DNA of 64,000 nucleotides from the NCBI GenBank assembly GCA_963769935.1, contig CAVYNY010000017.1, forward strand, positions 32,001 to 96,000, read 5' to 3'. The notes under the pieces are model-generated. The model saw only the letters and a list, made by a program, of their open reading frames with translations, was not told the DNA's origin and made no database searches. Positions 6,729-39,475 of this stretch are shown in pieces. Position numbers and translations under genes: made by a program. Each line of letters begins with the position of its first letter. Within the stretch, counting starts at the first letter, position 1. The stretch comes from an uncultured delta proteobacterium (GTDB lineage: Bacteria; Desulfobacterota; Desulfobacteria; Desulfobacterales; JAFDCJ01).

Positions 6729-6879
6729 AATACTGCCAAGGGAAATATCCCCAGGCGGGCCGCAGGTCACTAAACCTTAAAAAAAGACTAAAATTAGAGC
6801 AGCGTTTGTGTTAAATAGACTTATGCGGAGGTGGTGTATCAGATTCGAAGTGAACTATATTCGGAAGAGAGTTTTAGAA

Positions 6880-10003: not shown

Positions 10004-10018
10004 TTTCAGCAGCTCCTT

Positions 10019-10176
10019 AGGGCTCACTCAAAAATAACTTCACATTTTATACGCCGCTGCATCCCACCCGGCTGCGTTGCGAAAGCTCGGAATATCCAGA
10101 AATTCCTGCGTTTTCGCACCTTGCCAGCCGAGCGCCGCAACGCCTGAAATTGTGGACTAATTTTTTCGTGAACCCT
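10019..10176. mobile_element. MITE-like element
   Basis: ~158 bp non-coding element with imperfect terminal inverted repeats AGGGCTCACTCAAAAATAACTTCACATTT / AAATTGTGGACTAATTTTTTCGTGAACCCT and an internal palindrome. Confidence 0.6.
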
Positions 10177-24160: not shown

Positions 24161-24397
24161 TTAAAGAAGATCACGCAAAAGGGCGGCGCAGGTATCCGAC
24201 ATTTCGATCCCGGTTTCCTCGACCGCAATTGCTTCCCGCTCACAGATTTCAACGCAGCTAAGACAGCCCACACAATCTTTCGCATTTACGGGGGTCGACT
24301 TACCATTTCGCATTTCAAAAACTTCCGATGTGCAGGCTTCCAGACATTCTTCACAGCCGTTACATTTTTCCTGGTTCAGTGTTATTTTAAATCCCAT
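24161..24397 (-). CDS. 2x[4Fe-4S] ferredoxin
   Basis: CNGCEECLEAC and CVGCLSCVEIC; AGGAG RBS upstream of ATG 24397. Confidence 0.9.
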   Translation of the reverse strand: MGFKITLNQEKCNGCEECLEACTSEVFEMRNGKSTPVNAKDCVGCLSCVEICEREAIAVEETGIEMSDTCAALLRDLL

Positions 24398-24688
24398 CTT
24401 GTGATAGATCCTCCTTTGTACCGCTTTGTGTCCGTGGCTGGACTTATACAAAGTTGAATGATGCCACTAGATTCGGAATTTTTCACAAAAATGTCAACAG
24501 AAAAATTGTATCCAAAATATAAAGCAATCCAGGAAAATTTCAAAATTATTGGTTGACCCTTATCGGGCTATATTTTGGCAGAAAATTAATTAATATATTG
24601 AATTATATACATATTTAAAAAATATATTTTTGTTGACATTTCATAGGTGATCGATTAAAAATACTAATATCTCACAAAATTAAAGCCA

Positions 24689-24700
24689 TTTGTATACAAA
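24689..24700. promoter_or_regulatory. GntR/FadR-type operator palindrome
   Basis: Perfect TTTGTATACAAA at the gntR start; related TTGTATCCAA at 24506-24515 and TTATACAA near 24444; TTGACA on both strands in the divergent intergenic region. Confidence 0.65.
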
Positions 24701-25388
24701 ATTGGAAAAATCTGCCACTCAATTAAAGATCTCAAAAAAGTCCGTCCCGGTGCGGGAAAGGGCTTATAACGATTTGAAATCCGACCTGCTTTCCGGCCGT
24801 TTTACCCCGGGAGAAAGACTGACCGAAGAGCATTTGGCAAAAAGCTTGGGCGTCAGCCGAACACCGGTCAGAGAAGCCCTTCATAAGCTGGAATCCGAAG
24901 GTTTGGTCAAGCCCCTGGAAAGCAGGGGTTTTTACGTTGCACGGGATTCGCGCGAAGAGCTGGAGGATCTTTTCGATATCAGGGCCGCCTTGGAAGGCTA
25001 TGCGATAAGATTAATCTGCGCCCGAATATCCGCGGAAACAATCAAACAGCTCAACGAATTCATCAAAAAAGCAGAAGATGCACTTGCCCGCAAGCAACTC
25101 GATGAGATCTTTGAATACAACACCCAATTTCATGATGTTCTTCACGGCGTGATTGCCCGCAAAACCCGATTCCACACCCTGATTGCCGATACCCGCAAAT
25201 ATGTGCTGCGCTACCGCAAGGACAGCCTTCATTATTTCGACGGTGCGCGGCGAACCATCGACGGGCACAAAAAAATACTGATGGCCATTAGTCTGAAAGA
25301 CCCGGAGCTATGTGAGCGTGTGATGCGGCAACATATCCGGGAGGCCAAAGAAGAGGCATTGCATAAAATTTCTGAGAAAAAACAATGA
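24690..25388 (+). CDS. GntR-family (FCD domain) transcriptional regulator
   Basis: PGERLTEEHLAKSLGVSRTPVREAL wHTH; FCD motifs FHDVL and GHKKI. Confidence 0.93.
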   Translation: MYTKLEKSATQLKISKKSVPVRERAYNDLKSDLLSGRFTPGERLTEEHLAKSLGVSRTPVREALHKLESEGLVKPLESRGFYVARDSREELEDLFDIRAALEGYAIRLICARISAETIKQLNEFIKKAEDALARKQLDEIFEYNTQFHDVLHGVIARKTRFHTLIADTRKYVLRYRKDSLHYFDGARRTIDGHKKILMAISLKDPELCERVMRQHIREAKEEALHKISEKKQ

Positions 25389-25441: not shown

Positions 25442-26197
25442 ATGAAAGCAGATAAAGACAAATGTATCGCCTGCAAACGATGTTTTGCATATTGCCCCAT
25501 GGGCCGGATACAGACTTTTCATCGGCATGAGAAAATTCCCGGCCGCATTTACATTGAAATAGACCAGGACGCCTGTACCGACTGCGGCATGTGCGTGCGG
25601 GCCAACATCTGTCCGGTCAATGCCCTTTATCAGCAAGTCGAGGAATGGCCGCGGGAAATCAGAGGTATTTTGAGCAATCCGCTCATCGAGTTCAAGGGCT
25701 CGCAGGTGCCGGGACGGGGAACTGAAGAGATGAAAACCAACGACGTTAAAGGCTCCTTTCTGCCCGGTGAGGTTGGGGTCGGAGTTGAGCTGGGCCGTCC
25801 CGGTGTAGGGGCTTATTTCAGGGACGTCGAAATCATCGCGATGGCCTTGATGGGCGCGAACATCGGCTATGAACTGGCCGCGGAAAATCCGGTTACCCAT
25901 TTCATGTCGGACAAAAAAACGGGCAAACTGCGAGACGATGTGCTCGGTGAAAAGGCAACATCCGCAATTATTGAGGGCAAGTGCAAGTTGGAAAAACTGC
26001 CCGAGGCGTTAAAGGCTTTGCAGGAGGCTGCTGAAAAGGTCGATACGGTGTTTACCGTGGAAGTGATCACAAAGGTTACGCCGGAAGGAGAGGTGCCCAC
26101 CAAAGCCGTCCTGGAAAAATTAGGCTTCTGGTACTCCATCAACAGTAAGAACAACCTCGGGCTGGGACTGCCGGCCTTTGATTTTTACGGATCATAA
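25442..26197 (+). CDS. 4Fe-4S dicluster protein with uncharacterised C-terminal domain
   Basis: CIACKRCFAYCP and CTDCGMCVRANICP; C-domain with GRGTEEMKTNDV and ELGRPGVG; GAGGAGG RBS. Confidence 0.88.
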   Translation: MKADKDKCIACKRCFAYCPMGRIQTFHRHEKIPGRIYIEIDQDACTDCGMCVRANICPVNALYQQVEEWPREIRGILSNPLIEFKGSQVPGRGTEEMKTNDVKGSFLPGEVGVGVELGRPGVGAYFRDVEIIAMALMGANIGYELAAENPVTHFMSDKKTGKLRDDVLGEKATSAIIEGKCKLEKLPEALKALQEAAEKVDTVFTVEVITKVTPEGEVPTKAVLEKLGFWYSINSKNNLGLGLPAFDFYGS

Positions 26198-26209
26198 AGG
26201 AGACGATTC

Positions 26210-26857
26210 ATGACACACAGCTTGCACCGCAGGGGGGACTACGAGAGCCTCAAGGAAGATTTTGTGGTACTGGGCTGCCCGGCGACGGGCGTCAACAAGG
26301 TCGGGTCCGCCCCCAAGACCCAGAATTTTTTGAGCATCTGTTACAAGCACGGTCCGGTCAACCTGGGCGATATGAAAACCGGCAATATTTACAACACCAC
26401 CATGGATGATATCCTGGCAAGTGTAACGGATGGTACCATCGTTCAGTGTACTTTCGACAACCGGGATAAAATTGTGGATTTGATGAAAGAACTCAAGGAG
26501 AGAAGACCCGGAATATCCGTCATCATTTCCGGCGTGACCGATGTCGTGCAGCAGTGTATGTTCGAAGCCGGACTCGGTCCGATCCATTCACTCGAGTATT
26601 CATTGGGGACCTGGGGCAAAACCGAAAGATTGCCCGGGTATGCGGTATTGAAGCTGGTTACGATGTGCGGGCATGCCATGATTGCCTCCGACCTGGTGGG
26701 TAAAATGGTGCGGGACGTCAAACGCGGGCGCCGGACCATCAGATCCTGTGTGGTGGAATTGGCCCGGTGCTGTACCTGCGGCAACTTCAATTTGACACGC
26801 GGAGAAAAGATATTCCAGGAAGTCCTTTCAACCTATACGGTTCATAGTCTGTACTGA
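26210..26857 (+). CDS. Hypothetical Cys/His-rich (probable metal-binding) protein
   Basis: AAGGAG RBS; THSLHR, TMCGH and CCTCGNFN motifs; tightly spaced in the operon. Confidence 0.82.
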   Translation: MTHSLHRRGDYESLKEDFVVLGCPATGVNKVGSAPKTQNFLSICYKHGPVNLGDMKTGNIYNTTMDDILASVTDGTIVQCTFDNRDKIVDLMKELKERRPGISVIISGVTDVVQQCMFEAGLGPIHSLEYSLGTWGKTERLPGYAVLKLVTMCGHAMIASDLVGKMVRDVKRGRRTIRSCVVELARCCTCGNFNLTRGEKIFQEVLSTYTVHSLY

Positions 26858-26890: not shown

Positions 26891-28204
26891 ATGCGATATG
26901 TACTGGTGGGCGGGAGCGCTGCAGCCGTAAGTGCGCTGGAGGCGATTCGATCCGTTGACAAGTCGTCGCCAATTGATTTGTTCAGCGATGAAAAAGCGCC
27001 GCTTTTTTCAAGAGTGCTTCTTCCCTACTATGTGGCCGAGGAGCTCTCGAAACCGCTGTTAAATTTCAGATCGGCTGATTTTTTCCAGGAAAACAATGTT
27101 ACGGCCCATATCGGCGTCAGGGTTCAAGCGATTGATCCGGCTGCCAAAACGGTGACCGCCGATGACGGCCACACCTATGCCTATGACAAGTTGCTGCTTG
27201 CCACCGGCGGCAATGCGATCGTCCCAAAATTACCGGGCGTTGACAAGGAAGGCATCTCGCCGCTCAAGACCATGCAGGATGCGGAAAGAATATATAATTT
27301 TGACGGCGGCCGGGCGGTGGTCATCGGTGCCGGCAGCATCGGCGTCGAGTCCTGTATCAGCCTGATGCGAAGGGGTGTCAAGGTCACATTGCTCGAACAG
27401 TTGGGCCAGGTGCTGCCGACGGTTTTTGATGACGAGGCGGCCGGCATCATCCGGGAAGTCATCGAGCAGATGGGAATCGAGGTGATCACCGGCGAGCGCG
27501 CGATTGAATTTACCGGCAACGGCCGGGTGCAGAGTGTTGTGACGAGCACCGGCGAGATTGAGTGCGACAATGTCATTTTGTCCGTTGGGGTCAGGCCGGC
27601 GGTGGAGCTGGCCGAGCAGGCCGGGATCGAGGTCGGCATGATGGGCGGAATCACAACCGATGCCGCTATGATGACGAGTCGGCAGGATATATATGCCGCC
27701 GGGGATGTATGTGAGACCTTTGATATTGCCCGCAACCAGCCTTTTATCAATGCCATCTGGCCGATGGCCGTGGAACAGGGCCGGATTGCCGGACTGAATA
27801 TGGCCGGGCAAAGCAGACAATACGGCGGGTCCGTCCGAATGAACTCCATCGGTAATTTTATCGGTATTCCGGCCATGTCCATGGGTGTTACCCGCACCGA
27901 GGAATGCTCATATGTCGATGAAGATTGTCACTTCCAGGAGATCAAAAAACGGACCCGGAACACTTACAAGAAGATCATTTTAAAAAACGGATGCATTGTC
28001 GGGGCGATCTTCATCGGGGTGGGTCAAACCCAGCGCTGCGGCCTTATATCGATTCTTCTCAGGCGGCAAATTGACGTTTCCGACTATATTCAAACATTGA
28101 TGAGCAACAATTTGAGCTTCATGGATATCCTGCCGTTGTTGCGGCGCTACGGCGACAAGTTCACCGAACCCGAATACAAAGAGCTGATGGATACGGGGCT
28201 TTAG
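26891..28204 (+). CDS. FAD-dependent pyridine nucleotide oxidoreductase (FNOR/rubredoxin-reductase-like)
   Basis: LVGGSAAA, YDKLLLATG, VIGAGSIG, IYAAGD, AVEQGRIAGLNM. Confidence 0.92.
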   Translation: MRYVLVGGSAAAVSALEAIRSVDKSSPIDLFSDEKAPLFSRVLLPYYVAEELSKPLLNFRSADFFQENNVTAHIGVRVQAIDPAAKTVTADDGHTYAYDKLLLATGGNAIVPKLPGVDKEGISPLKTMQDAERIYNFDGGRAVVIGAGSIGVESCISLMRRGVKVTLLEQLGQVLPTVFDDEAAGIIREVIEQMGIEVITGERAIEFTGNGRVQSVVTSTGEIECDNVILSVGVRPAVELAEQAGIEVGMMGGITTDAAMMTSRQDIYAAGDVCETFDIARNQPFINAIWPMAVEQGRIAGLNMAGQSRQYGGSVRMNSIGNFIGIPAMSMGVTRTEECSYVDEDCHFQEIKKRTRNTYKKIILKNGCIVGAIFIGVGQTQRCGLISILLRRQIDVSDYIQTLMSNNLSFMDILPLLRRYGDKFTEPEYKELMDTGL

Positions 28205-28425: not shown

Positions 28426-28875
28426 TTGCAGGTTATAAAAGTAGATCCCAAGAAATGTACCGGTTGCCACCAGTGCGAGCTTTGGTGCGGAACGGAAATC
28501 GCATCTCTCGCCAAGGAATTATCCGGCGCAATCAATGAAGAACCCCAGCCGGTGCCCCGGGTGTATGTGGAAGGTAAAAAGCTGGCCCTGCAGTGCCGGC
28601 ATTGTGTTGAGGCGCCGTGCCTGGATGCCTGCCCCAACGGAACCATGCGGCGGGACCCGGAAACCGGACTGGTGTATGTAAATGAGCCGACCTGTATTGC
28701 ATGCTGGATGTGTGTGATGGTATGTCCCTTCGGCATCATCAATCCGTCGCCGACCCACCGGGTGGCAATTAAATGCGACCGCTGCCGTAACATGGGCTAC
28801 CCCATATGTGCGGAGGTATGTCCGACTCAGGCCATATCCGTTGAACCCCGGCAGGACTATCGTAAAGTCTTTTAA
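28426..28875 (+). CDS. cooF: CooF-like 4x[4Fe-4S] electron-transfer subunit
   Basis: CTGCHQCELWC, CRHCVEAPCLDACP, CIACWMCVMVCPFG, KCDRC...ICAEVCPT; GAGGAGG RBS. Confidence 0.85.
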   Translation: MQVIKVDPKKCTGCHQCELWCGTEIASLAKELSGAINEEPQPVPRVYVEGKKLALQCRHCVEAPCLDACPNGTMRRDPETGLVYVNEPTCIACWMCVMVCPFGIINPSPTHRVAIKCDRCRNMGYPICAEVCPTQAISVEPRQDYRKVF

Positions 28876-28916
28876 AAGGAAGATTGTGCAACTTATGGCA
28901 AAGTTAATAAAAATTA

Positions 28917-28998
28917 ATCACGAAAACACGAAATTCGGAAAGCACGAAATTAGATAATTATTTTTTTTCGTGTTTTCGCCCTTTCGTGCTTTCGTGAT
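28917..28998. repeat. Palindromic intergenic element built from CACGAAA units
   Basis: CACGAAAACACGAAATTCGGAAAGCACGAAA ... TTTCGTGTTTTCGCCCTTTCGTGCTTTCGTG. Confidence 0.7.
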
Positions 28999-29055
28999 AA
29001 AAAATTTCTGTTGAGTTCCGGGTGCTTAGGTTTAGGCATAAGAAAGGAGAAAAAG

Positions 29056-30754
29056 ATGGAGTTTATCCAGAGAAAGACCGCTGATCGTGCCGTTAACCAT
29101 TTCCTGCTGAAAGCAGCAGATCAGGAGATAAACGTTACATGGGACCGGTTTGAAGGTCAGCTTCCAGAATGCGGATTTTGTGAATCAGGCTTGAGCTGTC
29201 GAGACTGCCTGCAGGGTCCCTGCATCAGCCATCCGTTCAGAGGTCAGAGCAAGCTGGGTGTATGCGGTAAAGACAAGGACGTACTGACGGCTCAATCTTT
29301 GTTGCGGCTGGTGCTGAAGGGGACCATGTCCTATCTCGATCAGCTGAATGATTTTGTCAATGAGTTTCAGGCCGGTGCCGTCGAACCGGCCAACAAGAAA
29401 CAGGCCGGGCAGACCGTGAAAGCGATTCTGGATCTGCTGCATACGGGCAGCTCCGAGGTTGTCGGCGAGTTTCCGGCAGCTCTGGTGGAAGTCTGGAAAA
29501 CGACAGGCGTCCTCCCCCAAGGAATTGCCAGCGATGTGTTCAAGGCTTCCCAGCGGCTGGAAGGCGGTTTCAGCGATATGGAGGAAACGCTGTTGTGGTC
29601 CTTTAAAACCGCGCTGCTTGGATGTATGAGCGACAGACTCCAGCATAAATTAAAAGCAGCGGTTTTCGGCCGCACCGCTCCGGCAGAACTTGAAGTCAAT
29701 CTGGGTGTTCTTAAAAGCGATGGCCCCACCATTCTTATCTATGGTCCGGTTTCGCCGCTGCTCAAACAAAAGATTGCCGAAACGGCGGAGGAGAAAAACG
29801 TCAATGTGATGGGCGTCTGTACAGATCCGCTGCTGCCCTCCTATCGTTTTTTCCCGGTTACGACCTATGTTTCCCAAGAGGTTCCCCTGATGACCGGTGC
29901 CGTGGATCTGATTGTCGTCGGGAGCCAATTTGTCAACCCGTCTTTGGCTGCCGTCGCCATCGATTGGAAGGTAGCCGTGGTGCCGACCGATGGGTTAAAT
30001 CAAAATCCGGATACGGCTGCATTTGCTCAACAGATCGTAGCGCAGGCCGCGCAGGCTTTTGAAATGCGAAAGAACATTGCCAGAGACATTCCCATGGTCA
30101 AAGAATCGGCCGTCATGGGCTATTCTGCCGCCGAAATCGACATCAATAAGATTGTGCAGGCCCTGGAAAGCGGCAGCATCAAGGGCATCGCAATCCTGGC
30201 CGGCAGTAATAACGTCAAATACACCCAGGACGAGGAGCTGGTTACGATCGCCAAGCAGTTGCTGGCTCACGATATTTTGTGTGTTTCGGATGGGGAAGCC
30301 AGTGTCAGCCTGGCCAAATACCGGCTGTTGGATCCGGCCGGCCGGGACAAGGATTGCGGCCCTGGTGTCAAAGCCCTGCTGGCGTCGCTACGGGGAGAAT
30401 GTACCGTCGGTAATCGACTGGAGCCTGACGGATTTTCTGTTGACTTTAGGCGGTGCCGGCGAAAAGGCGCTTTCGGATTACCCGATCTGTGCCTATTTTC
30501 CGGAAGCCAACCGTACGGCCGAAGTAACCAAAGCGATGTGGACGGTGGCCATGGGCGTTTCCACTTATTTCTGGCCCTGTCTGCCGGTGACCGGCAGTGT
30601 CAGAACCCAGAAGGCCTTGAGCGATTTATGCCGGCAAAAATTCGGCTCAAAGCTGCATGTCGTAACCCAGAAAATCGATGCCCGATCCAAAGCCGGCTTG
30701 TTTATAAAAGAGATTGAAGCGCCGGCCCCGATGTCGGGAAAGTCGTGGGAATAA
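29056..30754 (+). CDS. Ni-CODH (CooS)-like protein lacking most C-cluster ligands; one apparent frameshift near 30390
   Basis: WDRFEGQLPECGFC...CRDCLQGPC...GVCG, EVNLGVL, TGAVDL, GIAILAGSNN, LPVTGS; C-terminus continues in ORF 30059..30754. Confidence 0.85.
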
Positions 30755-30759
30755 TCTCT

Positions 30760-31162
30760 TGGTGTCAGGTGTCAGTGTTCAGGTGTCAGCCAAACGAAGC
30801 TCTATAAATTTTTGGCGGCATTAAAAGAGACTGTGGAAGCGGTTTTTAACTGCGATCTGTCATTTTGTGATCTGACTTCGGCATAAAGTCTTCTGGAGAC
30901 TGACACCTCGTGTGAAACTACATTTAGTTTCTTCCACGATCAGACTGGACGCTCGCGGCCAGAGGCGGCGCTTATATGAAACTTCATTAAATTCGATGCC
31001 ATTTTTATGAAGTGTCTCACCGCTGAGAGCGCAGAGAGTGCGGAGATTAATTAAACTTTTCTTTCTCGGCGTTTTCGGCGGTGAACTATTATGTTTCTTT
31101 TTCGATCAGACTGGACGCTCGCGGCCAGAGGCGGTGCTGACACCCGAAACCTGAAACCTTCA
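30760..31162. repeat. Nested intergenic repeat cluster
   Basis: GGTGTCA tandem units pairing with CTGACACC/CTGAAACC; exact 32-nt duplicate CGATCAGACTGGACGCTCGCGGCCAGAGGCGG at 30937-30968 and 31103-31134; CACCGC...GCGGTG hairpin at 31017-31085. Confidence 0.75.
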
Positions 31163-31188: not shown

Positions 31189-32373
31189 ATGCCTTACCAA
31201 AGCGGTCGTCATTTCCTGCAGATCCCCGGCCCCACCAACGTTCCCGATCGGATCCTGCGGGCCATGGGCAAACCGACCATCGACCACCGCGGTCCGGAAT
31301 TCGCTCAGCTGGCGTTGGATCTGTCGGCGGGTCTGCAGCGGATCTTTCAAACCACCGGTCCGGTAATTGTGTATCCATCCTCGGGAACCGGCGCCTGGGA
31401 AGCGGCCATCGTCAATACGCTTTCGTCCGGCGACAAGGTCCTCATGTTTGAAACCGGCCATTTCGCTACGCTCTGGCGCAACATGGCTGCAAGCTTCGGG
31501 CTGGAGGTTGATTTTGTGCCGACCAACTGGAGACACGGGGTGGACCCTGCGATAGTCGAGCAAAAACTGGTCGAAGACCGGAATCATGAGATAAAATCGG
31601 TGATGGTGGTTCACAACGAAACTTCCACCGGAGTTACCAGCCGGATTCCGCTTATTCGAAAGGCCATCGACCGCGCCCAACATCCGGCCCTGTTGATGGT
31701 CGACACCATTTCATCGCTGGCCTCGATTGACTACCGGCATGAAGCGTGGGGGGTGGATGTCACCGTGGGCTGTTCCCAAAAGGGTCTTATGCTGCCTCCG
31801 GGGCTGGGTTTGAATGCCGTCAGCCAAAAGGCCCTGGCCGCGGGGCAATCGGCGAAGCTGCCGAAGTCTTTCTGGGATTGGAATGCCATGCTGGGGGCCA
31901 ACCAACAGGGCTTCTTCCCCTATACCCCGGCCACCAATTTGCTTTACGGCCTGCGGGAAGCCATTAGCATGCTGGAAGAAGAGGGGCTGTCGAACGTTTT
32001 TGCCCGCCATGACCGGCATGCCGAAGCCACCCGTCGGGCCGTGCGTGCCTGGGGACTCGAGGTTTTGTGCGAAACCCCCGAGGAATACAGCAGCTCGCTG
32101 ACCGCCGTCATGATGCCCGCTGGACATGACACCGCCGTCCTGCTGGATCTGGTTTTAAAGAAATTCGATTTGTCGCTCGGCATCGGACTGGGCAAGCTCA
32201 GGGGTAAAATTTTCCGTATCGGCCATCTGGGCTATTTCAACGACCTGATGCTGGCCGGAACCCTGGCCGGGCTGGAGATGGGACTCTCTCTGGCCGGGAT
32301 TCCCTTTTCCAAGGGAGGGGTGACGGCGGCGCTTGAATATCTGGAAGGCACCCACAGGCAAAATACCGGGTAA
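31189..32373 (+). CDS. Class V PLP aminotransferase (serine/alanine-glyoxylate aminotransferase-like)
   Basis: GRHFLQIPGPTNVP, VHNETSTGV, VDTISSL, CSQKGLMLPPG, FRIGHLG. Confidence 0.92.
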   Translation: MPYQSGRHFLQIPGPTNVPDRILRAMGKPTIDHRGPEFAQLALDLSAGLQRIFQTTGPVIVYPSSGTGAWEAAIVNTLSSGDKVLMFETGHFATLWRNMAASFGLEVDFVPTNWRHGVDPAIVEQKLVEDRNHEIKSVMVVHNETSTGVTSRIPLIRKAIDRAQHPALLMVDTISSLASIDYRHEAWGVDVTVGCSQKGLMLPPGLGLNAVSQKALAAGQSAKLPKSFWDWNAMLGANQQGFFPYTPATNLLYGLREAISMLEEEGLSNVFARHDRHAEATRRAVRAWGLEVLCETPEEYSSSLTAVMMPAGHDTAVLLDLVLKKFDLSLGIGLGKLRGKIFRIGHLGYFNDLMLAGTLAGLEMGLSLAGIPFSKGGVTAALEYLEGTHRQNTG

Positions 32374-32502
32374 TCCGCGGCTGGAATGGTGCACATGCGA
32401 TCTTTGGTTGTTGTCATCCTTTATTTCCGCCGCAGTCAAAATAAACCGATGAGACGCCGATCGGCCGTCTCAAATGCCTCAGGAAGAGAAAGGAGAAAAA
32501 CC

Positions 32503-33489
32503 ATGAAGCGTTCAATTTTGTTGGTCACCGTCATGTCTTTAGCCCTCATTTTATCCGGTGCTTTCAGTGCCCAGGCGGTTGAGCTTAAATTCGGGCACGT
32601 GGGAGCCCCGGGCTCCCTGTTTTCAATATGTGTGGATGAATTTGCCAAACGCGTCAACGCCCAGATGGGACCCGATGTAACCGTGGTCGCCTTTGGTTCG
32701 AGCCAGCTCGGCAAGGACCAGGAGCTTTTGAAAAAGCTCAGACTCGGCACCGTCGATTTTGCATTGCCCTCGACAGTCATGTCCTCAGTGGTCGACGTCT
32801 TCGGCCTTTTCGAAATGCCCTACCTGGTAAAAAACCGTTTACATATGCGGGCGATCCGGGATCGTCTCTTCTGGAGCAAACTGGAGCCGGCGGTCGAAAA
32901 GCAGGGCTATAAAATCATCGCCGTCTGGGAAAACGGCTTTCGCAACATTACCAACAATGTCAGACCCATCAACGTTCCGGCCGACCTGGCGGGAATCAAG
33001 CTGCGCACCCCCAAAGGGGAATGGCGCTTGAAGATGTTCAAAAGCTACGGCGCCAATCCCACGCCCATGGCGCTGTCGGAGGTCTTTGTCGCTCTTCAAA
33101 CCGGCGTCATCGACGGGCAGGAAAACCCCCTGGCCCAGATCTACAGCCAGAAATTCCAGGAAGTCCAGAAATACCTGTCCATGACGGGCCACGTATATAC
33201 TCCGGCCTACGTGACGGTCGGCGCCCAGCGCTGGGCCAAACTGCCGGCTGATCAGCGCGCCAAACTCCAAGCCATCGCTCAGGGCATGCAGGAATTCGTC
33301 TACCTGAAGGCCGAACAGCTCGACAATGAGCTTCTGGAAAAAATGAAAGGCTCGGTTGAGATCAACACCGCCGATAAAGACGCCTTTATCCAATCCAGCA
33401 GCGACATCTATGCCGAATTCGGCAAAACCGTTCCGGGAGGTGCCGAACTCGTGCAACAAGCCGTGGAACTGGGAAACATCTACAAGTAA
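32503..33489 (+). CDS. dctP: TRAP transporter substrate-binding protein
   Basis: Signal peptide, WENGFRNIT, LQTGVIDGQENP, EVQKYLSMTGH. Confidence 0.93.
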   Translation: MKRSILLVTVMSLALILSGAFSAQAVELKFGHVGAPGSLFSICVDEFAKRVNAQMGPDVTVVAFGSSQLGKDQELLKKLRLGTVDFALPSTVMSSVVDVFGLFEMPYLVKNRLHMRAIRDRLFWSKLEPAVEKQGYKIIAVWENGFRNITNNVRPINVPADLAGIKLRTPKGEWRLKMFKSYGANPTPMALSEVFVALQTGVIDGQENPLAQIYSQKFQEVQKYLSMTGHVYTPAYVTVGAQRWAKLPADQRAKLQAIAQGMQEFVYLKAEQLDNELLEKMKGSVEINTADKDAFIQSSSDIYAEFGKTVPGGAELVQQAVELGNIYK

Positions 33490-33500
33490 AACAACGCTGG

Positions 33501-33533
33501 CCACATCCGGGGTTATGCCCGGATGTGGTTTAT
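33501..33533 (+). terminator. Rho-independent terminator or stability hairpin after dctP
   Basis: CCACATCCGG-N8-CCGGATGTGG followed by TTTATT. Confidence 0.7.
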
Positions 33534-33752
33534 TCAATTGAAAACTGAAGATTGTAAATTGAATATTTATGGATGTCGCTGCGCTCCGTCTTTTATAAAA
33601 TAGATCCGCCTTTAATTGGGCCATATGGCATATGGTACAAGTGCTGATAGCGACATATGGTATTTTTAAAATGACACATGGCGCTATCGAAGGCGGACCT
33701 TAAATATTCAATTTTCAATCGAAAATATTCAATCAATGGGGGGGTGTTTTTG

Positions 33753-34304
33753 TTGGCACAATTTCGCAAAGGCTTTGAACGTCTGATGGAAGCCATCGTC
33801 ATTTTGCTCATGGTGACCCTGACCGTCATTGTTCTGGTTGCCGTAATTTACCGCAAAGCCGGCGCCTCGCTGAGCTGGTATGACGAGATTGCATCCGTTT
33901 TACTCGCCTGGCTTACTTATTACGGTGCCGCCCTGGCCGCCATTCACCGGGAACATATCGGATTTGCCGGCCTCATCAAAGCTCTGAAGCCCGCTGTACG
34001 CATCCCATTAATTGTCATCAGCGAAGTCTGCATTCTCGGTTTTTTTGCGCTGCTGGCCTGGGTCGGATTCCAGGTCTTGGTCATCCTTAAAGGCGATTCC
34101 CTGATCAGTCTACCGGAAGTCCCCACCCGCTTGACCCAATCCGTTATTCCCATCGGAGCAATCCTTTTTATTATCGCCGAGGCACTCGGCATTCCGGAGC
34201 TGCTGAAAAAAGCGGCCAAACCCGACGGATTCGCCAATGTCGACGTACCGACTGAGATGGAAACCAACTCAGTGACGGCCGCTACGGAGGGACCTCGCCC
34301 ATGA
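33753..34304 (+). CDS. dctQ: TRAP transporter small permease
   Basis: WYDEIAS, HIGF, four TM helices. Confidence 0.88.
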   Translation: MAQFRKGFERLMEAIVILLMVTLTVIVLVAVIYRKAGASLSWYDEIASVLLAWLTYYGAALAAIHREHIGFAGLIKALKPAVRIPLIVISEVCILGFFALLAWVGFQVLVILKGDSLISLPEVPTRLTQSVIPIGAILFIIAEALGIPELLKKAAKPDGFANVDVPTEMETNSVTAATEGPRP

Positions 34305-35584
34305 CGCTTTTTTTGATGCTTTTAGGCTTGTTTGCGCTGATTGCCATTAATGTCCCGATCGCCATCGCCCTGGCCGTCGTCGCGGTGGTGGCCATGATCG
34401 CCACCCAGGGCGTCGGCATCTTGCCCAACGTCGCCCTGGTCATGTTTGACGGCGCCACCAATTTCCCATTGCTGGCGATCCCCTTGTTCATTTTCGCCGG
34501 CGCCATCATGAACACCTCCGGAATTTCAAAGCGGCTGATCGCCTTTGCCTCGGCATTGATCGGATTTGTCAAAGGCGGCCTGGCCATGGTCACTATCGCC
34601 GCCTCGATGTTCTTCGCCGAGATGTCCGGCTCCGCGGTGGCCGATGTGGCCGCCCTGGGATCGATTCTCATTCCGGCCATGAAACGCAAGGGGTATCCAA
34701 GAGGCTTTGCGGCGGCCGTGACCTCCTCTTCGGCCACTCTGGCCGTCATCATCCCGCCGTCGATACCCATGATTCTCTATGCGGTCATGTCGGACAGCTC
34801 GGTGGTCCAGCTGTTTGTGGCCGGAATCATCCCCGGTATTCTGGGCGGCGTCATTATGATGGTTGTCTGTTACTGGTTTGCGGTTCGCTACAGCTACCCG
34901 GTGGAGGAGGTCTTCAAGTTCAAGCGGGTGTGGACTACCTTCAGGGCCGCCTCCTGGGCCTTTTTGCTGCCTGTGATCATTTTAGGAGGGATCTTCGGCG
35001 GCCTGGTGACGGCTACCGAGGGGGCCGGCCTGGCGGTGGCTGCGGCACTTTTTATCGGCGCCGTCATCTATCGTGAGCTCAACTGGCCGCATCTGCGGCA
35101 GGCCATCATCGAAGGCGGAATCTCCACGGCGGTCGTCATGCTGTTGGTGGCCGCCTCGGCTTTGGTGGGAAATTATCTCACGGAGCTTCAGGTGCCCCAG
35201 CAGCTGGCGGCGGCCATTACGCAGTGGACCCAAAACCGCTATCTGGTCCTGGCGCTGTTGAATGTTTTTTTTCTGGTAGTCGGGCTGTTTCTGCATTCCG
35301 CGGCTGCCATCATCCTGGTGGTACCGATCGTCATGCCGCTGGTCCACGCCATCGGCATCGATCCGGTACATTTCGGGCTTGTCGTCACCCTCAACCTGGG
35401 CATCGGCCAGCAAACCCCGCCGGTAGCCAGCGTGCTGATAACCGCCTGTTCGGTGGCCAAGGCGGATATCTGGGAAGTCAGCCGTATAAACGTCTTTTTT
35501 GTCGCCGTCATAGTGGCGGTGCTCCTGCTGGTCACCTATGTGCCGGCGATACCGATGTCGCTGGTGAGGCTGTTTTACGGATAA
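34301..35584 (+). CDS. dctM: TRAP transporter large permease
   Basis: LLAIPLFIFAG, IIPPSIPMI, GQQTPPV. Confidence 0.95.
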   Translation: MTLFLMLLGLFALIAINVPIAIALAVVAVVAMIATQGVGILPNVALVMFDGATNFPLLAIPLFIFAGAIMNTSGISKRLIAFASALIGFVKGGLAMVTIAASMFFAEMSGSAVADVAALGSILIPAMKRKGYPRGFAAAVTSSSATLAVIIPPSIPMILYAVMSDSSVVQLFVAGIIPGILGGVIMMVVCYWFAVRYSYPVEEVFKFKRVWTTFRAASWAFLLPVIILGGIFGGLVTATEGAGLAVAAALFIGAVIYRELNWPHLRQAIIEGGISTAVVMLLVAASALVGNYLTELQVPQQLAAAITQWTQNRYLVLALLNVFFLVVGLFLHSAAAIILVVPIVMPLVHAIGIDPVHFGLVVTLNLGIGQQTPPVASVLITACSVAKADIWEVSRINVFFVAVIVAVLLLVTYVPAIPMSLVRLFYG

Positions 35585-35647: not shown

Positions 35648-36809
35648 ATGATGCGATTTGAATTTGCCACCGCCACGCGGATAATTTTTGGAATGGGAAG
35701 CATAAAGGAAGCCGGCCGCCATGCCGCCCCAATGGGCCGCCATGCGTTTGTTGTCACCGGCCGGAGCGTTGAGCGGGCCGCACCCCTGATAGACGGTCTA
35801 AAAGAAAATGCGGTAAGCTGTTCACAGTTCAGCATTGCCGCAGAGCCGACAACCGACCTGGCCCTGGCGGCGGTGCGGGAGGCGCGTCGGCAACATTGCG
35901 ATGTGGTCATCGGAATCGGCGGGGGCAGCGTGTTGGACACCGGCAAGGTGGTGGCTGCACTGTTGACCAACAGCGGCGATTTAATGGATTATCTCGAAGT
36001 CATTGGGTCCGGCCGACCGCTGCAGCATGCGTCGGCCCCCTATATCGCCATTCCCACTACGGCCGGCACCGGTGCCGAGGTGACGCGCAATGCGGTTCTG
36101 GATTCACCCGCGCATTGTGTCAAGGTCAGCATGCGAAGCCCTTTTATGCTGCCGCAGCTGGCGCTTGTGGATCCGGAGTTGACCTTCTCGGTGCCGCCCG
36201 CCATAACGGCCAGCACAGGCCTGGATGCGTTCACCCAGCTGCTGGAGGCTTTCGTTTGCCGTCAGCCCAATCCTCTCACAGACGCTGTCTGCCGCGAAGG
36301 GCTGCAGCGGGCGGCACGGTCATTGACAAAAGCTTATCTTGCCGGCCATAACGCCGATGCGCGCTGCGATATGAGTCTGGCAAGTCTCTTTGGCGGGCTG
36401 GCGCTGGCCAATGCAAAATTGGGTGCGGTGCATGGGTTTGCCGGGCCCTTGGGGGGCATGTACCCTGCGGCGCATGGTGCGCTGTGCGCCGGCCTGCTGC
36501 CGCATGTCATGGATATAAATGTGAGGGCGCTGCGCGCCAGAGCGCCGGAATCCCAGGCGTTGGATCGCTATGATGAGATCGCGCGGATTGGTGACCGCTG
36601 CGCCCGACCGCACGCGCGGCGGATGGGATCGCCTGGGTGCGGGATTTATGCCGGCAGCTTAAGGTGCCGCCGCTGGCCGACCATGGAATAAAGATCAGGA
36701 TTTTGCAACCATCGTTGACAAAGCCCGCCGGGCCAGCAGCATGAAAGGAAATCCGATTGAACTGACCGCCGATGAGTTATTGGAGATTCTTCAGCGTGCG
36801 ATTTGCTAA
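35648..36809 (+). CDS. Iron-containing alcohol dehydrogenase (apparent frameshifts near 36590-36695)
   Basis: GGGSVLDTGK, IPTTAGTGAEVT, LGAVHG, HGALCA; typical C-terminus ASSMKGNPIELT...AIC* lies in a shifted frame ending at 36809. Confidence 0.88.
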
Positions 36810-37028: not shown

Positions 37029-39475
37029 TTAAGAGCTGAGGATTTCGTTGATTTTTTGGGAGAGTCGTTTCAAGTTGAAGGGTTTTTGAATAAATCCATT
37101 GCATCCGCGTTTTAACAGTTCACCGGCCTGGCCATCGATACTGTATCCGCTGGAAAGCAGGACCTTCACCTGCGGATTGATTTTCTTCAGTCGGTCATAT
37201 ACCTCCCCCCTCCCATTTGGGGCATCACCATATCTAGAATTACCAAATCGATTTCGTCCTTATTTTTTTTGAAGCGTTCAACCGCCTCGCGGCCGGTTTG
37301 GGCTGCCAGCACCTTGTATCCAAGCCTTTCAACCTGCATGACTCCGACATTGAGCACCATCTCTTCATCGTCTACAATCAGAAGGGTCCCGCTTCCCAGA
37401 ATAACCTCACTCGTCATTTCGACAGACGGCTGAACCCTTTTGTCGGAAGCCGGCAGATAAATGTGGAAGGTGGTTCCGTGGCCTTTCTCGGAATCGACTT
37501 CAATGTTGCCGTTGTGCCCTTTGACAATGCCGTAAACAGATGCCAGCCCCAGTCCGGTGCCGCCGCCCAACCCTTTGGTGGTAAAAAAAGGATCGAAAAT
37601 GCGGGACTGGATGGCTTTGTCAATACCCTCCCCGGAGTCTGTTATCGCCAGATGCACATAGGCGCCCCTTGGCGGCGTGTACAGTTTGCTCTTTAATTCG
37701 CCATGGGTGGAATTGGCGGTTTTGATAACCAGCGCGCCCCCTGCCGGCATGGCCTCGACCGCATTTACATAAAGATTCAGCAGCATCTGTTCAATTTGTC
37801 CCTGGTCCACCTCGATCGGAAACAGGTCCGGTGCAAGTTCGTGGGTGATGAAAATTTCCTTTTTTGTTCTGCCAAACGTTTCGGAGGTTTCCCGCACAAG
37901 CTGGTTCAGATCGATCGGCCGGACTTCATATTTTCCTTTTTTGGCATAGCCCAGCAATTGCGAGGTAAGTTTGGCGCCGCTTTGGATTTGTTTTTCAATG
38001 TTTCTTAAATTTGCGTAAACCGGATGGCTGGGATCGAGATCATACATTGCCAAAGAAACGTTGCCCTGAATGGTCGCCATCAGATTGTTAAAATCATGGG
38101 CGATGCCGCCGGCCAGGGTGCCGATAGCCTCCATTTTTTGCGATTGGATCAGCTGATTTTCGAGTCTTTTTTCATTGGTAATGTTTCGGATGAAACTGAG
38201 AGACGCCGGCCTGCCGGTCCATGTGATCGACACGGAATTGATTTGCAGCCATAATTGGTCCCCTGTTTTGGCAAGCGCTCTGAAGGTATAGTTGCTGATA
38301 ACGCTTTCACCCTTTAACCGGAGTTCATGCCTTTCCAACACCATTTTTCTGTCATCCGGGTGGACTATATCGGCAAAGGAGGCACCGATTAATTCGTTTT
38401 CAGAATAGCCGGTTATTGCCAGCGCGCGCGGATTGGCGAACATCAGTGAGCCGTCCTGGGCCACAACGATGGCGTCGTTGGCATTTTCAACCAGCAGGCG
38501 GTACTTTTCTTCGGATTCCAGCAGGGCCATTTCGGCCAGTTTCTGATCATTGATATCCTTGATAAATGAAATTCGAAGTCCGGAGGTCAAAATAGACGAA
38601 GTAAACTGGCAGATCCTCTGCCGGCCGTCTTTTCTGGTAATAGTTGCCTCCCGGATGCGCGGCTGCTCTGCCGTATCGATTTTCCTTGCTTCTTCACTAA
38701 TCATTCGGCGATAATTTTCATCCGGATACATCTTTTCCAGCCAGGTAAATCCATCCGGTATTTCTTCCTTTATATACCCTGATATTCTTTCAAGCTGGGA
38801 ATTAAATATCAAAATGTTCTGCTCGGGATCGAGCACCATCACGCCGTGGGGCGCGGACTCGATCGAAAAACGGTACAGCGTTTCACTTTCCCGCAGTGCT
38901 TCTTCGATTCTGCGGCGTTCGGCGATTTCTCCTTCCAACAGGCGGTTGGCTTTGATCAGGTCGGCGGTTCGCTCGGCAATCCGCTGCTCGAGAAGATTAT
39001 GGGCGCGATGAAGCTTATCTTGCGCACGATTGCGGACGGTGACATCTTCAAGAACATTGTAAAACCGGTCTTCAAGCTTGATCACATGTACGATGATGTC
39101 GTGGATTCCGCCTGATTTGTCGATGAAACGCCGGATAAACCGGGTCGATCTGTCATCTGACGCGATCCACCGATCCACCTCAAATGATTTTTCAGCCCGG
39201 TAATCCGAATTCGGCATCAGTTTTTCCCGCCAGGCTTTTTGATCCGGAATGTCGTCCGCCGTATAACCAAATACTTTCGTGAACTGGGGATTCATGTACA
39301 TGGTTTCTAAATCGGCGGTACCGACCACAATAGGAAAAGGCAATTTTTCAACCATGTCCCTGAAGAGCGCTTCATTTCTTCGCAATGCTTCCCTGGTATG
39401 TTCCAGGTCGAATGCCTTTTTTCCCAATACATTAACTCTATGTGTTAATTCTTCATAGGTTGGTTCCTTTGACAT
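37029..39475 (-). CDS. PAS-domain hybrid sensor histidine kinase/response regulator (1-nt G-run deletion near 37205)
   Basis: Three PAS domains, GGIAHDFNN, FDPFFTTK, GTGLGL; the receiver domain continues in another frame as VLLSSGYS...FIQKPF...SS*. Confidence 0.9.

Follow-up and report, generated by a model that had tools for sequence, protein, structure and literature searches.

Closest described systems

Several described members of the CO dehydrogenase (CODH) family resemble the protein studied here. The G-1 row in Table 2 of Inoue et al. (2019) lists a type III D motif, Tyr, His, Thr, four Cys, and Lys (PMC6344411). The mini-CooS of Thermosinus carboxydivorans is a 482-aa protein for which all cluster ligands were reported (Techtmann et al. 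2012, PMC3328121), and the accessible text of Inoue et al. (2022) assigns it to clade G (PMC8776680). Gene clusters of CooS, CooF, and an FAD-dependent NAD(P) oxidoreductase (FNOR) are described for clades C-G, Geobacter sulfurreducens, and Clostridium spp. (PMC6344411). The Ni-free ChCODH-V of clade D and RfCODH of clade B have little or no CO activity and have been proposed to be repurposed scaffolds; in the available part of the same source, the known non-canonical CODHs retain a C-site cluster (PMC13592312). As far as the accessible texts describe their sequence selection, sequences with gaps or changes at the C-cluster positions were dropped by Inoue et al. (2019) (PMC6344411), and sequences altered at these positions were likewise dropped by Inoue et al. 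(2022) (PMC8776680) and left out by Bohm and Land (2026). None of the 24 groups of Inoue et al. presented there is without the last three Cys, and section 3.4 of Chongdar (2026) does not mention such forms. The branch defined in this study is thus one that these surveys, by their described design, filter out. A search of mainly open-access main texts found no description of a C-cluster-less (C-less) family or of the gene cassette described below. The term "CooS-like" in PMC7306483 refers to assembly fragments.

The window analysed here is a stretch of 64,000 nucleotides from an uncultured delta proteobacterium of the Desulfobacterales (GCA_963769935.1, contig CAVYNY010000017.1, positions 32,001 to 96,000), and it carries an operon with a CooS homologue (Table 1). 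Like the G-1 Ni-CODH, this protein has a type III D motif, Tyr for His93, Thr for Cys295, and an FNOR/CooF context. Of the His261, the four C-cluster Cys, and the Lys563 that are still present in G-1, however, none remains in the window protein. It resembles mini-CooS in being a short, deep-branching CooS that adjoins cooF; however, mini-CooS has 482 aa and all ligands, while the window protein has 565 aa and only the B and D ligands. The operon has the same three genes as the CooS-CooF-FNOR clusters and the same inferred route from CooF via FNOR to NAD(P), but it is without a CO-oxidising site and without cooC, and two extra genes of no known family are always present. As with ChCODH-V and RfCODH, a CODH fold that oxidises CO hardly or not at all is proposed to have been put to a new use. 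In contrast, both of those proteins assemble a multi-iron C-site cluster with most ligands, and the window protein retains none. The hybrid cluster protein (HCP) belongs to the same Prismane Pfam family, is Ni-free as the window protein would be, and holds its hybrid cluster by His, Cys, and Glu at equivalent positions. The window protein has no His or Cys at these positions, and no HCP was found among its 36 PDB matches.

Table 1. Features of the operon and its borders, in window coordinates
Feature	Coordinates	Strand	Remarks
Small divergent 2x[4Fe-4S] ferredoxin	24161..24451	-	adjoins the operon and is conserved there
GntR/FCD regulator, first gene of the operon	24690..25388	+	in 30/35 close-subfamily loci
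FeS251, 251 aa: 2x[4Fe-4S] ferredoxin domain and unassigned domain	25442..26197	+	
Hyp215, 215 aa, no known family, likely metal site	26210..26857	+	
FNOR, FAD-dependent NAD(P) oxidoreductase	26891..28204	+	top NCBIfam match PadH-like, below cut-off
CooF-like 4x[4Fe-4S] protein	28426..28875	+	89-95% identity in eight close loci, 69-80% in other classes
C-cluster-less CooS homologue	29056..30754	+	565 aa in intact orthologues; frame split by one extra base at 30391
D-cluster CxxC (C39, C42), surface F41, and B-cluster C48, C51, C56, C70	29170..29265	+	retained
Class-V aminotransferase	31189..32373	+	BhcA-like aspartate-glyoxylate model 463 bits, cut-off 650; in 20/35 close loci
TRAP carboxylate transporter: dctP, small subunit, dctM	32386..35584	+	

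Ligands, reading frame, and conservation of the CooS homologue

The ORF starts with the ATG at 29056. Codons 1-445 lie in one frame, and the C-terminal ~120 residues lie in another, which ends at 30754. The closest PDB sequence is Carboxydothermus CODH-II (ChCODH-II; E 9e-56), and all 36 PDB matches are CODHs. The PF03063 (Prismane family) score is 157 bits against a cut-off of 27, and the homology to CooS extends over the full length. Ligand positions were read from alignments in which the host's own canonical CooS sequences served as rulers; in the N-terminal part, the numbering of the window protein equals that of ChCODH-II. The first-pass annotation had stated that four B-cluster Cys and a CxxC D motif are kept, and the alignments to PDB and CooS sequences confirmed this: all four B-cluster Cys and the type III pair C39-x-x-C42 are present. 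Since the C-X2-C motif binds a [2Fe-2S] cluster in DvCODH (PMC6168284), the CooS homologue would also have a [2Fe-2S] D cluster. Every C-cluster and acid-base substitution listed in the first-pass annotation was also correct in the ChCODH-II alignment. Both acid-base residues are replaced (His93 by Tyr93 and Lys563 by Ala488), as are His261 (Pro231), Cys295 (Thr256), Cys333 (Phe292), Cys446 (Ser384), and Cys476 (Glu414). The loop of Cys526 has lost about five residues, and this ligand is deleted. One Cys had been counted as left of the site. This Cys255, in GVCT, does exist, but it aligns with Cys294, and the corresponding Cys301 of DvCODH does not ligate the canonical cluster (PMC6168284). 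Therefore, 0/6 canonical C-cluster ligands are left, and no alignment restored any of them.

The equivalog model TIGR01702 has a cut-off of 478 bits, which is missed by both the window ORF (188.5 bits) and the intact protein P0003 (210 bits). It had been noted that no cooC is nearby. Indeed, none is present in the operon, and a motif scan found one CooC-like gene, on contig C16 of the host. By analogy with known CODH chemistry, the CooS homologue is predicted not to oxidise CO and to form a dimer, likely one of two identical subunits without nickel. Three ligand-complete canonical CooS are encoded by the host. Two of them are tandem, near-identical 657-aa proteins with full ligand sets (contig C10:56277-60634), and the third lies in the acs cluster (C16:129143-131179). 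A separate 542-aa HCP is also encoded.

The extra base at 30391 is likely an assembly error, since it is missing from near-identical contigs of two of four sequencing runs that were compared; the other two runs have no contig at this base. One such contig covers 29205-30803 and differs by 18 other letters and a single gap, which lies at 30391. Six intact orthologous genes are collinear across this position. More one-base indels against near-identical contigs were found at 6779, 14097, 15680, 16085, and 33494, in agreement with the earlier view that the single indel fits a window-wide error pattern. A lesion private to the strain is a much less probable explanation. Indel errors are also likely in two ORFs downstream: in the Fe-alcohol dehydrogenase ORF (35648-36691), the family match breaks off after about residue 313, and the ORF of the hybrid kinase (37187-39475) stops within the receiver domain, as judged by eye. 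In another genome, the copy of the CooS homologue has an independent frameshift at about codon 340 (L044:11016-11023), and the aminotransferase gene of locus L045 is frameshifted too; none of these scattered indels of other assemblies is shared between them. Short intergenic repeats at 28955-29000, 30760-31160, and about 10010-10070 match many unrelated contigs. They are skipped in close strains, for example at the joint 28873-29041, and are likely small mobile repeats.

Is the loss of the ligands peculiar to this copy? A homologue search listed 120 clusters with 79-95% identity, all 564-565 aa in length, and residues were counted in 116 collinear rows of 565 aa among those listed. In all 116 rows, C39, F41, C42, C48, C51, C56, and C70 are invariant, and positions 231, 256, 292, 384, 414, and 488 never hold the ligand residue. 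A Cys occurs within the shortened 526 loop in at least 22 of the 116 rows and is not conserved. Between window codons 1-445 and six orthologues, dN/dS was 0.09-0.13 (Nei-Gojobori, own script). Among the pairs of six orthologous genes, it was 0.01-0.07 for codons 1-100 (13 of 15 pairs were computable) and 0.07-0.19 for codons 226-565. Identity across classes is 67-78% for residues 1-100 and 44-52% for the remainder. In a set of 60 non-canonical rows, of which 49 are C-less and 11 retain most ligands, 60/60 keep the B-cluster Cys, G54-P55, P60-F61, and G71, and 59/60 keep F41. In 28 C-less orthologues, position 231 shows seven states, and position 292 is mostly F, W, or Y. The same ligand losses span four families of the phylum. 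Thus, the gene is maintained and not decaying, because 116/116 collinear homologues are without the ligand residues and dN/dS is about 0.1. The first-pass annotation had called the protein maintained; it had also considered that close orthologues with intact ligands might reveal decay of this copy, and no such orthologue is among the 116. These results clearly indicate a real, maintained, and undescribed C-cluster-less variant of the known CODH family, which many anaerobes have in common.

Close orthologues are found in records of Deltaproteobacteria and Desulfobacterales, including the Olavius Delta 1 symbiont. Eight of 22 genomes of the host's genus carry the C-less gene. No orthologue was found among 300 genomes of the class outside the host's family, where the best match had E 1.9e-52 and 34% identity. 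More proteins of the C-less type exist among 50%-identity representatives, and some are from cultured Bacillota. Related C-less proteins occur in the cultured Desulfitibacter alkalitolerans (WP_028309265) and Neomoorella humiferrea (WP_106004215), and UniRef gives the latter the name "Carbon monoxide dehydrogenase 2". Of the 120 homologues listed in the search, 41 are named, and 39 of the 41 are labelled as a CO dehydrogenase catalytic subunit. Such labels are likely wrong for C-less homologues. The warning in the first-pass annotation that the gene would be mistaken for CO oxidation capacity thus holds for the database names, but the CO capacity of the host itself is not misjudged, because three canonical CooS are present. 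CO-oxidation calls are to be corrected in other genomes, as six near-complete genomes gave C-less CooS only.

The gene cassette, its distribution, and its origin

The gene order is gntR - FeS251 - Hyp215 - FNOR - cooF - cooS-like, followed by the class-V aminotransferase gene and the TRAP transporter genes, and the cooS homologue is co-oriented with cooF and FNOR. In orthologous loci of other classes, TctABC replaces TRAP. The first-pass annotation missed the two unannotated upstream genes for FeS251 and Hyp215, which are the constant partners. The six-gene order is kept in 8/8 loci of close genomes. Eight loci of other classes were chosen by a close Hyp215 match; the five core genes are present in seven of them and the eighth stops at a contig edge, with CooS identities of 48-56%. 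Three further C-less lineages (about 490, 496, and 520 aa) have the order cooF-cooS-FNOR-FeS251-Hyp215, and the D-cluster Cys are also gone in the 490- and 496-aa lineages. In 15 extra regions, the cassette is complete in 10, and contig ends cut the other five.

Hyp215 was detected in 38 of 301 sampled genomes of the phylum. A profile of 24 divergent CooS was run against 301 phylum genomes (E<=1e-105, at most four candidates per genome scored) and gave 33 matches, 17 short and 16 of standard length. All 17 short matches lie within 2.3 kb of a Hyp215 match, a count that is inflated by kinship and includes four sequences that had been in the profile. Of the matches classed as standard by their length alone, 15 of 16 are in genomes without a Hyp215 match. 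In loci of at least 8 kb, which overlap in origin, the CooS-like and CooF genes accompany close-subfamily Hyp215 in 33/35 cases and FNOR and FeS251 in 35/35, and a CooS-like gene accompanies distant-subfamily Hyp215 in 9/32 cases. The linkage is one-way; a close Hyp215 brings a CooS-like gene, and a distant Hyp215 mostly does not. FeS251 lies beside Hyp215 in 67/67 loci of at least 8 kb.

A scan for promoters and terminators gave matches at chance level only. In four metatranscriptome runs of one study, 55-62% of the words of the window are present, and contigs from three of the runs cover the operon. A control stretch is covered unevenly in these runs and evenly in a DNA run. These contigs alone, in which DNA carry-over is possible, hint that the operon is expressed.

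Regarding the origin of the C-less protein, it was found that the CooS of locus L087, a 53% identical orthologue in the same operon, fits the G-1 row exactly. Seven rows show the G-1 pattern, one of them being cut off before the Lys; they belong to the same operon and make up a clade with support 100 inside a family of 37 rows. The remaining 30 rows, including the window protein, have none of the four Cys or the Lys. The window protein groups at 100/99 with the G-1-signature proteins in a tree built without the clade G representative OGP75751. By comparison with the G-1-signature proteins, it is probably a clade G derivative. The maximum-likelihood tree places G-1 inside the C-less rows, but a single loss was not rejected (AU p=0.254; 33 of 64 rows, ligand columns dropped). 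Neither multiple losses of the C cluster nor a regain in the 565-aa family is claimed from this test of C-less monophyly. The mini-CooS-like rows form a clade separate from the window protein. At locus L169, a mini-CooS-like gene follows FeS251-Hyp215-cooF, and over 105 aa its product shares 64% identity with a mini-CooS-like representative of 482 aa. Clade G and mini-CooS thereby gain a genomic context and a testable role other than CO metabolism.

Some variations were noticed among the related loci. The subfamily with the G-1 ligands (L087:9665-10960, L150-L159) has an FNOR of a different type, 41-48% identical to the window FNOR, and several of these loci have a second, divergently oriented FeS251/Hyp215 pair. 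The window FNOR is 59-72% identical to the FNOR of most other-class C-less loci. A clade of short CooS of 490-532 aa (P0132, P0135, P0139, P0152, P0173, and P0188) has four C-cluster Cys and is without His261 and Lys563. Two ligand-complete CooS (P0140 and P0144) have N-terminal fusions of about 220-230 aa; by eye, that of P0140 presumably resembles a c-di-GMP-binding PilZ-type domain.

Predicted partners and a possible electron relay

Hyp215 has no Pfam or NCBIfam match, while at least 5403 clusters of homologues exist. In the alignments, H6, C153-G-H155, C188-x-C190-G-x-x-N194, and R197 are invariant. The AF2 model has a pLDDT of 90; no Foldseek match was obtained at E<=0.001, and the top Z was 4.5 among 48,161 chains. 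FeS251 combines two cluster motifs of the ferredoxin type with an unassigned domain in which GRGT-x-E-x-K, G-R-P-x-x-G, R92, E96, K98, R119, E178, and K236 are invariant. Its fold was matched clearly for the ferredoxin domain only, and the C-terminal domain gave Z<=6.7 against ACT/ferredoxin-like folds. Such weak matches of the two proteins establish neither a new fold nor a function. A PDB sequence search with both profiles returned ferredoxin domains or noise only, and the top clusters in the Atlas searches were all "hypothetical". Judging from the residue patterns, C153, H155, C188, C190, and H6 of Hyp215 may bind a catalytic metal, and FeS251 may supply Arg and Lys residues for carboxylate binding together with two clusters. 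Together, a Cys/His metal site, basic residues, and two clusters would suit an oxidoreductase of two subunits that acts on an anion. FeS251 and Hyp215 thus represent a large, unannotated family of protein pairs whose apparent metal site marks it as a candidate enzyme.

Other neighbours of the cassette are carboxylate transporters (Tct/TRAP), GlcD-like oxidases, a 2-hydroxyacid dehydrogenase, a ThDP lyase with a CoA transferase, and AOR. These neighbours also suggest an anionic substrate, likely a small carboxylate taken up from outside. The substrate is only weakly constrained, because the neighbouring enzymes are all below their family cut-offs. My tentative guess, with the odds clearly against it, is glyoxylate or a comparable small acid of the 2-oxo or 2-hydroxy type that enters by TRAP or Tct and is linked to the aminotransferase.

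The reading I favour, with a probability of roughly 60%, is that the CooS homologue is an iron-sulfur relay between FeS251/Hyp215 and CooF, from which electrons pass to FNOR and NAD(P). The FeS251/Hyp215 pair would be the real catalyst and meet the substrate. The remaining B-D-B' chain of iron-sulfur clusters in the dimer would carry electrons between this pair and CooF, and the exit route from CooF via FNOR to NAD(P), modelled on known CODH chemistry, could run in either direction. According to the accessible part of one source, electrons in CODH travel from C via B' and D to the partner, and the B cluster lies 11.5 Å from the surface, which gives the chain at least two possible ports (PMC11924984). 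F41 is described as a mediator-contact residue of ChCODH-II (PMC10979024). It is this surface that selection preserves in the non-canonical rows, while the positions of the old pocket drift. The electron-transfer or scaffold role that had been suggested in the first-pass annotation is now better supported, because the cluster domain (residues 1-100) is under the strongest selection and because the B cluster, F41, and P60-F61 survive in several C-less lineages. A natural CODH with only B and D clusters would also be a clean tool for the study of electron relays.

Some findings count against the relay. Purifying selection still acts on the former catalytic domains, and in the 28 C-less orthologues C255 (26/28), E/D414 (27/28), R486 (27/28), and the C-less-specific E489 (27/28) are conserved; a pure wire needs none of C255, E/D414, and E489. 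Since FeS251/Hyp215 often occur without the CooS module, the pair needs no such relay in general. Since the D-cluster Cys are lost in several C-less lineages, the B cluster is the only one found throughout, and it is not certain that a through-wire exists. The four conserved residues are what would be expected if the emptied pocket held a simpler site, a mononuclear metal or a substrate at C255, S384, E414, R486, and E489, so that the protein would itself act as an enzyme or a sensor with a connection to the B cluster. E489 is Ala in the G-1 and canonical rows, and other C-less lineages again show Asp or Glu at 414 and 489. Repurposed scaffolds have precedents in the Ni-free CODH-V and clade B, as described in the available part of PMC13592312. 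However, residues change freely at positions 231, 292, and 488 and in the Cys526 loop, 292 is occupied by bulky aromatics, exceptions occur at 255 (A, G) and 414 (G), and the 480-490 aa lineage shares none of those residues except the acids. A simpler site is therefore considered unlikely. The dimer may also be a mere platform that positions CooF, FNOR, and perhaps the pair, with the B cluster serving for folding or one-electron buffering. The D ligands are lost in several lineages, the surface loop (F41 and P60-F61) is conserved as strongly as the Cys, and the two clusters of FeS251 could reach CooF directly. On the other hand, a redox-active cubane 11.5 Å from the surface (PMC11924984, accessible part) is kept in 60/60 rows, and both D Cys are kept in 116/116 close homologues, which makes a platform without electron transfer improbable.

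Might the protein instead assist or regulate the canonical CODHs of the host without being a catalyst itself, for example via heterodimers? The three canonical CooS of the host would allow this, but six genomes that are 97-100% complete (G365, G374, G410, G461, G474, and G503) gave C-less CooS matches only, with a profile that did find standard-length and more distant CODHs in other genomes. Moreover, the gene is linked to the cassette and not to canonical cooS, and such a role is very improbable. A decaying pseudogene, or an active CODH misread by the alignment, is already largely refuted and hardly credible. The window copy is frameshifted, and orthologues at about 53% identity with the G-1 signature keep the four C-cluster Cys, the His, and the Lys. 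Against this, near-identical contigs are without the extra base, dN/dS is about 0.1, identical losses are seen in 116 homologues and four families of the phylum, and no Cys is present at or beside three of the ligand positions.

Returning to the relay, the module in which the C-less variant is embedded may be a new kind of oxidoreductase. A wider proposal, to which I give slightly less than an even chance, is that the five gene products form an oxidoreductase complex not described before, with a recycled CODH as its wiring and with catalysis at a new Cys/His metal site; the family that provides this site is large (at least 5,400 clusters) and unannotated. The clade G and mini-CooS "CODHs" would then be partly intact members of this module and not enzymes of CO metabolism, and the C cluster would have been discarded within the module, possibly more than once.

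Up to eight copies of Hyp215 occur per genome (G350 and G388). At locus L112, three tandem FeS251/Hyp215 pairs lie behind a single cooF-cooS-FNOR set. This arrangement suggests that the pairs are interchangeable catalytic heads on one electron module.
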